From an uncultured bacterium (lineage in GTDB: Bacteria > Babelota > Babeliae > Babelales > Babelaceae): a DNA stretch of 64,000 nt. The notes below the pieces were generated by a model. The model searched no databases, was not told where the DNA came from, and worked only from the letters and a program-made list of their open reading frames with translations. Every line of letters starts with the position of its first letter. Within the stretch, counting starts at the first letter, position 1. Shown here piece by piece: positions 26,077-33,599 of this stretch. The DNA is taken from contig OY970209.1 in the NCBI GenBank assembly GCA_963713855.1, forward strand, positions 704,001-768,000, in the 5' to 3' direction. The translations under genes and the position numbers were made by a program.

Positions 26077-27160
26077 AAAAAAAGTCCTTCACGTTATATC
26101 AAGCTTACATAGAGGCGGTGCTGAAACTTTACTTGTTATGCTTGTAAATCGCTTAACTGAGTATGAGCATCACGTGTGTTATTTTCATGAAGGTCCCTTG
26201 CGATCAGAGCTTGAAAACGCAGGCATTTCACTCACCCGCATAAAGGGTTTTCTGGCCCCCTATGACCCAATAGGCTTTTACAAGCTTTTAAAATGCGTCC
26301 GTCGCTTTAAGCCAGACGTTATTCATACGTCCTTATGGGCCGCAAATCTTATTGGCCCCTACATAGGTGCGCTGTGCAGCGTTCCTGTCGTAAGCGCTTT
26401 CCATACGCTGTGTGAGCATGAAGGAAAACTACGTACACTCATGGCGCGCTTTGGTGCACTTTCTCCCTCGCGTTTTATAGCGGTGTCTGATGGTGTTGCC
26501 CAATCACTTCAAAGATCGGGACGAGCGTATTTGAAAGAGATTACCCTTATACCAAATGGAATCGATACCTATGCTTTAACCCAAAAAGCTCAACGACCGA
26601 TAGCATACAAGCGGGATCACCTTTTTACCTTTGGGAGTGTTGGTCGCCTTGTTCCCGTCAAAAATTATACGCTTCTTCTTGAAAGCTTTTACGAGCTTAA
26701 AAAGCAGCATAACGCTATTCGGCTAATCCTAGTCGGTAACGGCCCACAAGAGAGCGTCTTGCGAATGCAGGCAAAAAGGTTAGGTATAGAGGATGCTGTA
26801 CTATTTATTGTCAATCAGGAGGCGGCACCTTATTACCACCTTTTCGATTGCTTTGTGCAGCCGTCGCTCTATGAAGGGCTTTCATTAGCACTCCTTGAGA
26901 GCATGGCTCTAGGAGTGCCAGTTATTACGACGAGCGCTCATGGGCAGCATGACGTTATTAAACATCTTCATGATGGGTTCTTGATAAAACCAAATGACGG
27001 TAAAGCGCTGACCGATGCTTTGAGTATGGTTCTCACTGATGATGGGTTGAGGCAGAGTTTTAGGAAGGCTGCTAAAATAACAGTTGCTCAAAACTTCACA
27101 CTCGATACAACAGCGGCTAACTACGACAAGATTTTGAGACAGGTGATGAAGGCCTTTTAA
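26066..27160 (+). CDS. Glycosyltransferase family 4
   Basis: GGAE, IPNGID, VGRLVPVKN and EGLSLALLESMALG. Overlaps the upstream ligase. Confidence 0.92.
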   Translation: MRAKKKVLHVISSLHRGGAETLLVMLVNRLTEYEHHVCYFHEGPLRSELENAGISLTRIKGFLAPYDPIGFYKLLKCVRRFKPDVIHTSLWAANLIGPYIGALCSVPVVSAFHTLCEHEGKLRTLMARFGALSPSRFIAVSDGVAQSLQRSGRAYLKEITLIPNGIDTYALTQKAQRPIAYKRDHLFTFGSVGRLVPVKNYTLLLESFYELKKQHNAIRLILVGNGPQESVLRMQAKRLGIEDAVLFIVNQEAAPYYHLFDCFVQPSLYEGLSLALLESMALGVPVITTSAHGQHDVIKHLHDGFLIKPNDGKALTDALSMVLTDDGLRQSFRKAAKITVAQNFTLDTTAANYDKILRQVMKAF

Positions 27161-27189
27161 AAAATCAGAGGGCGATTGCTCGCCCTCTG
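27160..27189 (-). terminator. Intrinsic terminator whose U-tract is on the minus strand
   Basis: 10-bp stem CAGAGGGCGA-TTGC-TCGCCCTCTG (27166-27189) with an A-run at about 27159-27164. Confidence 0.75.
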
Positions 27190-27314
27190 GCCTCATCAAG
27201 GTTCGACCAACTTTACGCGGCTTTTGCTCGCCTTTGAGGCTAGGCCAAAAAGCGGTCGAGCTTTTAAGCACATTTTCTAAAGGCTTAAAAAATGTAGCTC
27301 GAGAGTAGTTAAAA

Positions 27315-27416
27315 CTACAAAGGCCAATGTGACAATGGCCAGGATGGCTTACGACCCAAAGGCCATGAAGCTGCTTGACGACCTAAAGGCCAATCTAGAG
27401 AGATATAAGAGCACAT
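27315..27416 (-). CDS. 33-aa WPL-repeat peptide MCSYISLDWPLGRQAASWPLGRKPSWPLSHWPL
   Basis: RBS AAAGAGGAG just upstream of the ATG. Four in-frame WPL repeats with synonymous variation (TGG CCT TTA, TGG CCT TTG, TGG CCA TTG, TGG CCT TTG). Downstream terminator on the same strand. Confidence 0.7.
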   Translation of the reverse strand: MCSYISLDWPLGRQAASWPLGRKPSWPLSHWPL

Positions 27417-27555
27417 ACCGTCTCCTCTTTAAATAAGGATGAAACCGACTATACTTAGGAATTGAACTATTGAAGTATCAAAAATCCTGTTACTAGGGAT
27501 TAAAGTGTAGGCTAAAATAAAAAAAAAGCAAAAACTTTAAAAAACATTGGTAAGT

Positions 27556-30282
27556 ATGTTGAATTTGTTTGTTTCCTTTTTTAGGGCTGTGACGCACCCT
27601 TTCATATTTACAAGCCTTAAACTGTTAATGTTTTCTTTTAAGGTTTATTTCATTGCAGAGCTCTTTAAGGCTAAAATCCATACCAAGGTACCACCGCGGT
27701 TAGGATATTCTTTAATCATTTCGCTTATCATTAACAGTTTAGGCGACGTGCTTGGCATTGTGTATATTGGCCTTAAATACCTGAGCGATTCTTTTTTTAT
27801 TAACGAAGTCGCATCAATATGCAGAAAGCTTACACGTCCTATAAGTATAGCCGAAGGCGTATTATTCGCGTTGTTTATCAATGGCCTTATTCAGTTAGAT
27901 AGGGGAAAGAAACTTTCAAGGACTGCCATAGTATTTTCTACACTTGGGGCTTTTTTGTTATTTTGCCAACTTCTATCTATAACGCTTCCTATAAAGCGTC
28001 TTCAGGTTATGGACACGCTCCTTGACATTGACTTAACCGTATATCGAATTACCATTTTCTACTCTTTGACCGTTCTTGCAACAACTTTGCATCACGCTTT
28101 AAGGTCTATTCGCAGCAACGTCTTACCGCGTATTCTTACCGCACAGCTTAGAGCACTTTTAATGTACGCGTTAACACCCTACGTATCTATTGGATGTATC
28201 ATTTTTCTTATAACGCTTTTTTCAGATATTGGAAAACAAGAGTTTTATCCTATTTTTGGTTTATCTGCTATAGCCGTCAACTATATCTTCTACATCTGCT
28301 CTCGCCGAATCATGAAACTACGCTTTCTTAATTTATATGAGGACGTCCAGGTTAAATACGACAGCGAATTTATTAAGTATTTTAACGATGCTCTTGCAGG
28401 ACTTGCAAAAGCAACTGCCCTCTATCAGGTTGAAACGGTTACCAAAAACTTTGTTAGAGAAGCTTTTGAAATTCCTTTTGAAAAGACCCTTGTGTTTGTA
28501 CGGCCGTTAAGGTCAAATCAAGCTTTGCCAGAACTAGATCTTTATCAGGAAGGTTTACAATTAACGATTGAAAATCATCTTGCCAACGCTCCACAAAATC
28601 AAGCACTGCGTGCCTTATTAGAGCAATCAAAAATTTTGGTATTGGATGACCTTGAATTTACTTACTTTTATCAGCCCGATGAACTTGTAAAAAGAGCTAT
28701 TACGTTTCTCAAAAGTGCTGAAGCAGAAGTGTTTTTGCCTATTTATGACAAGCACTTTTTAATAGGCTACGTTATTGTTTGTCAAGGTGCGCGTGCACAT
28801 AAACTCTACAGCGCTGTTGACAAAGAAGAGATGATCGCCATGGCTATTTATCTTGAACGTGTGATTAACCTGTTGCAGCATGCAAATCCGGAACTCGTGC
28901 TTAAAAAACAAAAAGCACTTAATGACGAGTTAAAGGAAAAAGATCACGAATTGAATCTTTATAAAGATGCGCTTTTAAGCTTCAATCAATATAGACGCGA
29001 TCGTAAAATCGGTATTATACAGTATAAAAATAGGCACTTTAAGTACGTTAATACGGAAGCTCGCCATGTCATACCTATCGATCTTGATAATGAAGCCGGC
29101 CACTATGTCACACAGACACTTAAAGGATTAGGTGATCAAATCAAAGAAGATGGTACAGCTCACGTAACGCTCAGTTATGACCACGAAGGTCACCCACTTT
29201 TTATTCGGGGCATGCCAAATAGCCATGACAGTAGTATCATCTTTATTGTCATGCATGCTGAAATTGGTGACATTCTCAATTACACGCTTCCCACACTATC
29301 AGCGTCGGCCGACTGGGATTACGCCCTATTTTTACAAACGACTAAGGCGGGAAAGAGAATCAATGAGCTTATACCTGGGGCTACGCCGACGATCACTCAG
29401 TTTAAAATGAGTCTTTTGAGGGCTGCAATAAGTGAAAAGCCTTTGTTTTTGCATATTCCTGAGGAAGATGTAGCATTTGTTTCTGACATAATTCATTACA
29501 CAAGCTCACGAACGTACTTTGAGGTTTTAGAGGTTCTGCAACCTGAAAAAAACAATGAGGTGGGCCTTAAGCTTTTGGGAAGTAACCCGCTTTTAGAGCG
29601 GGCACCTAAAGAGCGTCCTTTTTTAGAAAAGCTTAATGCCCTTGGTACATTACTTATTAAGAATATCGATTTACTGCACATAGAAACGCAAATAGCGCTC
29701 GTAGAATACCTGCGGTATGGTTTTTTTCATCCCCTTAGGAGCGACCGGCGAATAGAGACAGATGTGCGACTTATCTTATCAAGCACGAAAGATATTAAAA
29801 GCCTTGTTCATGAGGGCGAGTTTTCATTAGAGCTCGCTGAAGAATTATCCCAGTGGACAATCACTCTTCCGTTAATTAGCCAGCTTCCTATTGCTGAGCA
29901 AGAATCGTTAATAGAAAGCTATAGAAAGCAGATATTGCATAAGGAGGCTGCTCAAACGCTTCTTGAAATTTCACCTAAAGAAAAAGCAAGTATTATCGAA
30001 AGAAAGCCGTCAAGCCTTGACGAATTAAGAAGGTGTGTCCATCTTCTTATAGCATCAAAGGCTGCAAAGAAGAAAATTCCCGAATTTGCACTTGATAATG
30101 CTCCTGTGGCCGCTGATCCGGAGTTGCAAAAAGCTGCTGTTCTTGGTAAAAATGCTCTTAAGGATGCGCGTATTGTTACGATGCTCTGGCACAAATTCAA
30201 AAGCCAAGCAAAAATCGCTCAGTTTTTGGGAGTCAACCGTTCTTCGGTGCATAAGCGCTGCAAGGAATATAACTTATCTTAG
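27556..30282 (+). CDS. Membrane-bound regulator: about 7 TM, GAF-like, degenerate sigma54-activator AAA, Fis-type HTH
   Basis: Seven hydrophobic N-terminal segments. VFLPIY..LIGYVIV. GTLLIKNIDLL..Q..DVRLILSSTKDI. HTH SQAKIAQFLGVNRSSVHKR. Confidence 0.8.
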   Translation: MLNLFVSFFRAVTHPFIFTSLKLLMFSFKVYFIAELFKAKIHTKVPPRLGYSLIISLIINSLGDVLGIVYIGLKYLSDSFFINEVASICRKLTRPISIAEGVLFALFINGLIQLDRGKKLSRTAIVFSTLGAFLLFCQLLSITLPIKRLQVMDTLLDIDLTVYRITIFYSLTVLATTLHHALRSIRSNVLPRILTAQLRALLMYALTPYVSIGCIIFLITLFSDIGKQEFYPIFGLSAIAVNYIFYICSRRIMKLRFLNLYEDVQVKYDSEFIKYFNDALAGLAKATALYQVETVTKNFVREAFEIPFEKTLVFVRPLRSNQALPELDLYQEGLQLTIENHLANAPQNQALRALLEQSKILVLDDLEFTYFYQPDELVKRAITFLKSAEAEVFLPIYDKHFLIGYVIVCQGARAHKLYSAVDKEEMIAMAIYLERVINLLQHANPELVLKKQKALNDELKEKDHELNLYKDALLSFNQYRRDRKIGIIQYKNRHFKYVNTEARHVIPIDLDNEAGHYVTQTLKGLGDQIKEDGTAHVTLSYDHEGHPLFIRGMPNSHDSSIIFIVMHAEIGDILNYTLPTLSASADWDYALFLQTTKAGKRINELIPGATPTITQFKMSLLRAAISEKPLFLHIPEEDVAFVSDIIHYTSSRTYFEVLEVLQPEKNNEVGLKLLGSNPLLERAPKERPFLEKLNALGTLLIKNIDLLHIETQIALVEYLRYGFFHPLRSDRRIETDVRLILSSTKDIKSLVHEGEFSLELAEELSQWTITLPLISQLPIAEQESLIESYRKQILHKEAAQTLLEISPKEKASIIERKPSSLDELRRCVHLLIASKAAKKKIPEFALDNAPVAADPELQKAAVLGKNALKDARIVTMLWHKFKSQAKIAQFLGVNRSSVHKRCKEYNLS

Positions 30283-33507: not shown

Positions 33508-33599
33508 TGGAGGAGAGAGTGGGATTCGAACCCACGATCCCAATTTCTTGGGATAACTGCTTTCGAGGCAGCCGCTTTAGACCACTCAGCCATCTCTCC
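33508..33599 (-). tRNA. tRNA-Ser (CGA)
   Basis: GGAGAGA acceptor stem, GCTGC-CT-CGA-AA-GCAGT anticodon arm, long variable arm, GGTTCGAATCC T-arm, encoded CCA. Confidence 0.97.

Follow-up and report, generated by a model that had tools for sequence, protein, structure and literature searches.

What is a short peptide gene with repeated Trp-Pro-Leu units doing when it is divergently transcribed from a large membrane-bound regulator, in a member of the Babelota, bacteria that live obligately within protist cells? The pair lies in a stretch of 64,000 nucleotides, here called the window, at positions 704,001 to 768,000 of contig OY970209.1 (assembly GCA_963713855.1, Babelaceae; genome G000, 91% complete), and a first-pass annotation made from the letters proposed that it forms a circuit in which one protein is both peptide receptor and transcription factor. 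The comparison across the phylum points to a two-gene cassette of the Babelota that probably consists of an exported x-x-P-P-type peptide signal and a one-protein membrane receptor/transcription factor. The proposed pairing of a small divergent gene with a multi-membrane-helix one-component regulator, backed by a codon signature and by co-variation with the sensor, stands, and the Trp-repeat motif and the likeness to AgrC or ComD fall away. The anatomy of the cassette is well supported, and from it we infer a signalling function.

The minus-strand open reading frame (ORF) 27416-27315 reads as first described and encodes the 33-amino acid product MCSYISLDWPLGRQAASWPLGRKPSWPLSHWPL. Its ribosome-binding site (RBS) is strong, as claimed, with a Shine-Dalgarno pairing energy of -9.1 kcal/mol ranking 40th among 253 intergenic ATG ORFs of 12-70 amino acids with a good RBS in the same genome. 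The four WPL codon triplets vary at synonymous third positions alone (CCT/CCA, TTA/TTG), agreeing with the earlier description through just two changes in all. A tripeptide repeated at least three times is present in 3 of the 253 short ORFs (this one, an EEE run and RRG x3), and the WPL ORF is the sole one with a non-homopolymeric fourfold repeat. The terminator reported downstream is confirmed as a stem at 27189-27166 of 10 pairs, 7 of them G-C, followed by a T tail; the one other minus-strand ORF across it is a 120-amino acid GTG frame, antisense to a glycosyltransferase and without an RBS, in line with the view that no other credible gene explains the terminator. The peptide has a hydropathy peak of 0.6, no leader, and Pro-Leu (PL) in place of the Pro-Pro (PP) of the family described below. 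The form nearest to it is the leaderless 15-amino acid MVPAPVIAHWPPWIG, placed at an equal distance from the regulator in a same-genus genome, which also has TTGCTT-16-TATACT at the position equivalent to the window's peptide promoter; further WPP peptides with a weak leader are present in the family.

The peptide family was defined beside all distinct regulators with an intact N terminus and at least 600 nucleotides (nt) upstream (n=145; loci L001-L161, which favour high-scoring members), by accepting ATG ORFs of 12-120 amino acids with an RBS on the divergent strand and a start 40-450 nt upstream of the regulator. Small ORFs are present beside most homologues, as had been anticipated; their motif is x-x-P-P-x-x behind a hydrophobic leader in place of the expected repeated Trp motif, with the fourfold WPL being a local variant. 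A divergent ORF with PP occurs beside 108 of the 145 regulators (at least L050 being a false pick), compared with 1/145 on the sense strand, 6/725 in dinucleotide shuffles, 27/1032 beside other genes of the same genome and 10/427 beside genes with free upstream DNA. When a hydrophobic leader is added to PP the count is 98/145, against none on the sense strand or in shuffles, 9/1032 and 4/427, respectively. The PP criterion was picked after inspection of about 50 loci and was therefore applied again, unchanged, to later-fetched metagenome loci, giving 17/20. Among the 37 misses about ten yield PP ORFs once RBS and start codon are relaxed and several others have x-P variants. The median precursor has 32 amino acids, starts 88 nt from the regulator, and in 86/108 ends 1-3 residues past PP. 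In seven close pairs of equal length the differences at codon positions 3, 1 and 2 number 80, 58 and 28, a coding pattern at the codon level, and a sigma70-like promoter precedes 71/96 peptide ORFs versus 10% of shuffles. The hydrophobic leader is found in 108/122 family precursors and is missing from the window peptide. Repeated cores recur elsewhere in the family (DDFPPMG x3 in L008, FPPI x2 in L030, [WF]PPIL x2 in L013), and three of four peptide sequences looked up gave no match in a collection of 15 billion proteins.

In seven loci (L011, L017, L036, L039, L086, L100 and L132) the peptide gene occurs at least twice in tandem upstream of one regulator, and the cores of the copies differ slightly. 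Genome G011 (L032, L048, L050, L052) contains about nine diverged paralogues with precursors ending in Gly/Cys-rich cores (EFSQN and EFLS, for example) and not in PP, possibly a second peptide chemistry. Far from any regulator, an intergenic ORF of 54-64 amino acids in the window genome (G000:C1:454145-454339, plus strand) with a strong RBS, a hydrophobic leader and a Pro-rich tail is a possible orphan precursor.

A 30-sequence profile of the regulator matches 175 of 201 phylum genomes, or 152 after setting aside 23 with weak matches of AAA-only size (E above 1e-11, families f6, f11 and f14). Copies number 1-9 per genome, often in tandem; the cassette is also present in the cultured isolate Noda2021 (locus L084), and no relative was found in viral contigs. 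The cassette adjoins an endonuclease III-like gene in 57/108 loci, with the gene 3' of the peptide ORF being co-directional in 61/108 (these 57 included) and convergent in 39/108. The small ORF travels with the regulator and not with the downstream gene.

The regulator most likely starts at ATG 27556, which gives 908 amino acids and the 139-bp gap to the peptide gene that was first reported, whereas the TTG start of the 911-amino acid version leaves 130 bp; its predicted promoter faces that of the peptide gene (Table 1). The seven membrane helices, the AAA domain of bacterial enhancer-binding protein (bEBP) type and the helix-turn-helix (HTH) of the original domain assignment are backed by model, fold search and profile, and its GAF domain by secondary structure alone, with no Pfam match in the GAF-like/coiled-coil/PAS-like region. 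In the predicted model the seven-helix bundle is superposable on G-protein-coupled receptors (GPCRs) in an N-out/C-in topology, and a Foldseek comparison with the GPCR fold gives a TM score of about 0.6, but with E above 0.001. The likeness is one of fold, with no claim to coupling via heterotrimeric G proteins or arrestin, the output being a transcription factor in the same chain. The HisKA_7TM profile (PF16927) matches 0/127 sensor domains at E 0.05 and nothing in the window genome; the feature score of 0.91 to an Atlas cluster in which PF16927 makes up 18% counts as no more than a lead. The AgrC/ComD-like sensor of the first-pass annotation is not borne out, the predicted seven-transmembrane (7TM) fold being that of GPCRs and no kinase domain being found in the regulator. 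There is likewise no TPR Pfam match in its 908 residues, and its NCBIfam scores are all far below cut-off. The AAA+ fold of the NtrC family and a C-terminal Fis-type HTH are present, and an alignment of the family profile with NtrC4 and NtrC1 shows replacements at the GAFTGA loop, the arginine finger and both Walker motifs (A and B), from which the AAA domain is predicted to be catalytically dead. Sigma54 (PF04552) was not found in the window genome and is above cut-off in 0/121 phylum genomes (two weak matches); with motifs replaced and sigma54 not found, the regulator is not a sigma54 activator. TyrR, NtrX and DhaR use sigma70. These sigma54-independent bEBP-like regulators likewise lack the GAFTGA loop and have an NtrC-family AAA+ domain with a Fis-type HTH, whereas here all ATPase motifs are lost, a 7TM sensor is fused and a peptide gene is paired.

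Sensor and core diverge jointly. Mean pairwise identity (111 full-length pairs, two false picks removed) is 0.29 for the sensor, 0.52 for the AAA domain and 0.68 for the HTH. Among 30 pairs, not independent of one another, whose cytoplasmic parts are at least 78% identical, the sensor is the less conserved part in 28, and the two exceptions are the sole pairs with identical cores. In 16 of 21 disjoint pairs divergence is greater in the outer half of the sensor than in its inner half, and across the 21 the identity of the cores correlates with outer-minus-cytoplasmic identity (rho 0.50, p 0.02). The acidic versus basic core class requires 4 changes on the sensor tree and 8 on the cytoplasmic tree (FastTree; shuffle minimum 11). 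In the tandem L007/L033 (G016:C54) the DNA is identical from about codon 280 to the end, but identity falls to ~70% across peptide and sensor and the cores differ, a mosaic due to gene conversion or to a collapsed assembly. The family-conserved residues W67, R91, W94 and E159 sit in the outer half of the sensor, and it is in the outer half of the bundle that GPCR ligands bind. Because kin share traits, these results are read as co-inheritance with correlated change and not as binding.

No maturase or exporter had been seen adjacent to the pair, and this extends genome-wide, as AgrB and the C39 exporter (ABC transporter) were not found in the 91%-complete genome, nor was OppA; these absences fit membrane sensing without re-import. 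Signal peptidase I is present, and none of the HATPase matches in the genome is of histidine-kinase size (two matches, in frames of 808 and 615 amino acids). In the proposed mechanism, the precursor would be made from its own sigma70 promoter, cross the membrane by Sec or another route and be cut to a core of 5-8 residues, which would build up in the periplasm or parasite vacuole while the bacteria multiply. From the outer side of the inner membrane, the core would bind within the outer half of the 7TM bundle. The GAF-like domain, the coiled coil and the PAS-like domain would pass this on to the pseudo-ATPase scaffold and the HTH, and sigma70-dependent transcription would change as a result, with the peptide gene itself and a shared regulon as the probable targets. 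The rapid joint divergence would make the pherotypes specific to kin. The window copy is a derived form with four WPL cores, no leader and a remodelled pocket. Quorum or infection-density sensing, as first suggested, is what we infer such a cassette to do.

A number of points weigh against this mechanism. The core lies 6 residues or fewer from the hydrophobic stretch in 65/122 precursors and at least 7 residues away in 43/122. The residue preceding R/K-x-PP is small in 0/12, and that preceding D/E-x-PP is A, S or G in 18/31; release by signal peptidase I is doubtful for many precursors because the residue before the core is often not small. The window peptide's way out is not accounted for, as it has no leader and neither a C39 exporter nor AgrB was found, and no operator motif emerged. 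The residues W67, R91, W94, Y101 and E159 are lost in the window's receptor, which sits on a long branch, a loss that may be co-evolution or drift; the intact relative of 87% identity (P0002) keeps the changes at 67, 91, 94, 101 and 159, so that pocket and peptide appear to have left the family pattern together. Membrane domains often outpace enzymes in divergence and kin are not independent, and binding, export, expression and target genes are all putative. Beside the paralogues L003 (G000:C1:78388-80757) and L002 (G000:C1:928245-930470) a divergent peptide ORF was not found by the same criteria. They may be orphan or eavesdropping receptors. L003 occupies the ancestral site, between endonuclease III and a gene common to the locus of genome G001, and the window copy therefore seems to have moved together with its peptide gene.

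The short spacing and the lack of a small residue at the would-be cleavage site of the R/K-x-PP class favour a different role for the small protein, as an uncleaved single-pass microprotein in the membrane of the same cell, its PP tail docking in the 7TM pocket as a feedback modulator or tethered ligand with a logic comparable to that of MgrB. Pairing and co-variation fit such a tether equally well. It is nevertheless considered unlikely, since 14/122 precursors have no hydrophobic stretch, those of the window's genus among them, the core is distant in the 43 noted above, and several precursors have 2-3 repeated cores; a private tether gives little reason for repeats, or for core and sensor to switch so rapidly among kin. 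The exported core could instead serve as a self-probe of confinement, envelope integrity or secretion state in the host vacuole, with neighbours uninvolved. This would suit a system near-universal in an obligately intracellular phylum, held at a stable housekeeping site beside endonuclease III (57/108), in a genome with no histidine-kinase-sized HATPase match found. A self-probe would have no need to diversify. Close relatives nevertheless differ in their cores and in the outer halves of their sensors, and receptors multiply, with up to 9 matches in one genome, making this a distinctly improbable account.

Another reading accepts the family as a signalling cassette but holds that in the window it is decaying or has lost its access to export, so that the WPL peptide, having no leader, misses the receptor or acts inside; this is very improbable. 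In its favour are the missing leader, PL for PP, the five changed sensor residues and the long branch, but the same substitutions are kept in P0002, leaderless peptide signals are known (PMC10518010), and a same-genus genome likewise has a leaderless peptide. The promoter, the strong RBS and the terminator also persist, and the four cores are intact. A ribosome-stalling leader or secretion monitor with SecM/MifM logic, controlling the downstream gene through a PP arrest motif after a membrane segment, would explain PP near the C terminus behind a hydrophobic segment and the 61/108 co-directional arrangements (57 with endonuclease III-like genes). It has next to no likelihood, as a convergent gene faces 39/108, the terminator after the window ORF leaves it no gene to control, the ORF accompanies the regulator, and the precursors are too short for a translocation monitor because their median of 32 amino acids is about the length of the ribosome tunnel. 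Two of the four WPL cores (window 27340-27395) end in G-R or G-R-K, and this W-P-L-G-R/RK ending resembles a eukaryotic Gly-basic amidation site. A neuropeptide-like mimic aimed at the protist is just as remote, for all that the host is eukaryotic, as the Gly-basic ending is not a feature of the peptide family and the cores co-vary with the adjacent bacterial sensor.

How, then, does the exported-signal cassette compare with known systems? ComD and ComP belong to related systems in which a peptide is sensed at the membrane. The agr system (AgrBDCA) also senses its peptide with a multi-helix membrane domain and has a hypervariable block in which peptide and 5' sensor vary beside a conserved output (PMC3673130), as here. 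Unlike agr, there is no histidine kinase, response regulator, AgrB or cyclisation residue, and a sensor of GPCR fold forms one chain with the DNA-binding output. The RRNPP systems (Rap-Phr, PlcR-PapR, Rgg-SHP, ComR-ComS) share the adjacent gene pair and a propeptide of 10-100 amino acids with a short C-terminal core, preceded in RRNPP by a secretion leader (PMC10075063) and in 108/122 precursors here by a hydrophobic one; there too the receptor is itself the transcription factor, and some precursors have repeated cores, multi-core propeptides being known (PMC11343458). Their receptors, as described for Firmicutes, are cytosolic TPR proteins of 250-500 amino acids that depend on peptide re-import (PMC10075063), whereas the present receptor has 908 amino acids, lies in the membrane and has no TPR match, and OppA was not found. 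The leaderless communication peptides (RopB-SIP) resemble those of the window's genus as tiny leaderless ORFs with an RBS, divergent from the receptor, but have cytosolic RRNPP-class receptors and single hydrophobic cores of 8-9 amino acids (PMC10518010), compared with a 7TM receptor and a four-core precursor here. Prokaryotic histidine kinases and diguanylate cyclases with GPCR-fold 7TM sensors (PMC13581589) use the same fold as input; here the output is a transcription factor, the cognate peptide gene is adjacent, and the PF16927 hidden Markov model does not match. The cassette belongs to neither RRNPP nor agr, though its adjacent propeptide-receptor logic is alike and known, and the receptor class fails the tested defining features of RRNPP, two-component peptide sensing and sigma54 activators.

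The Babelota are thought to lack cell-to-cell signalling; for one cultured member, the published genome description lists no quorum sensing and calls such mechanisms absent (PMC6561590), and a term look-up in PMC4776705 and PMC12172432 gave no mention of quorum sensing. No description of the cassette was found in the literature searched, with subscription papers and supplements outside its reach. We take the pair to be genuine, a peptide-receptor cassette that spans the phylum and has been overlooked, with a receptor of undescribed architecture. Whether it constitutes a third architecture of peptide quorum sensing, in which a GPCR-fold receptor fused to a dead AAA+/HTH factor reads pherotype-specific Pro-Pro peptides for kin counting in the host, is evenly poised. 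If so, gene callers miss a channel of peptide communication that has been kept by a whole phylum of parasites with a reduced, intracellular way of life, and that would let them count kin within the protist host. A bacterial peptide paired with a GPCR-fold receptor would then stand beside the neuropeptides of animals and the pheromones of fungi. The cassette would also provide more than 120 natural peptide-receptor pairs for a bacterial GPCR-like fold, with ligands mostly unknown. It would become directly testable how prokaryotic 7TM sensors recognise their ligands, and when Babelota replicate or lyse the host.

Table 1. Features of the peptide gene and its regulator, in window coordinates
Feature	Position	Strand	Basis
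Intrinsic terminator closing the peptide transcript	27156..27189	-	10-pair stem, T tail
Structured 3' untranslated region of the peptide gene (125 nt)	27190..27314	-	folding energy
Leaderless precursor of 33 amino acids with the core x-W-P-L four times, a local form of the x-x-P-P-x-x family peptide	27315..27416	-	
Shine-Dalgarno site of the peptide gene, Shine-Dalgarno-like AAAGAGGAG	27422..27430	-	
Predicted sigma70 promoter of the regulator, TTTAAA-16-TATACT	27428..27455	+	consensus match, alone not above chance
Predicted sigma70 promoter of the peptide gene, TTGCTT-16-TACACT	27504..27531	-	scores 10, family threshold 12
Sensor domain: N-terminal helix and 7 membrane helices, N-out/C-in, GPCR-like fold	27556..28320	+	predicted model, positive-inside
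GAF-like domain, coiled coil, PAS-like domain	28363..29256	+	secondary structure only
bEBP-type AAA+ domain without Walker A, GAFTGA, acidic Walker B pair and arginine-finger segment	29344..30069	+	
Fis-type HTH, best-conserved part of the family	30118..30282	+	

The 125 nt between the peptide stop codon and the terminator form further stable hairpins, the folding energy of 27156-27316 being -57.3 kcal/mol (z -4.1) with the terminator counted in. There is no Rfam match for 27190-27314, and the hairpins may give the peptide transcript a regulatory RNA element. Elsewhere in the window a tRNA gene (Rfam RF00005) is located at 33511-33599 on the minus strand.

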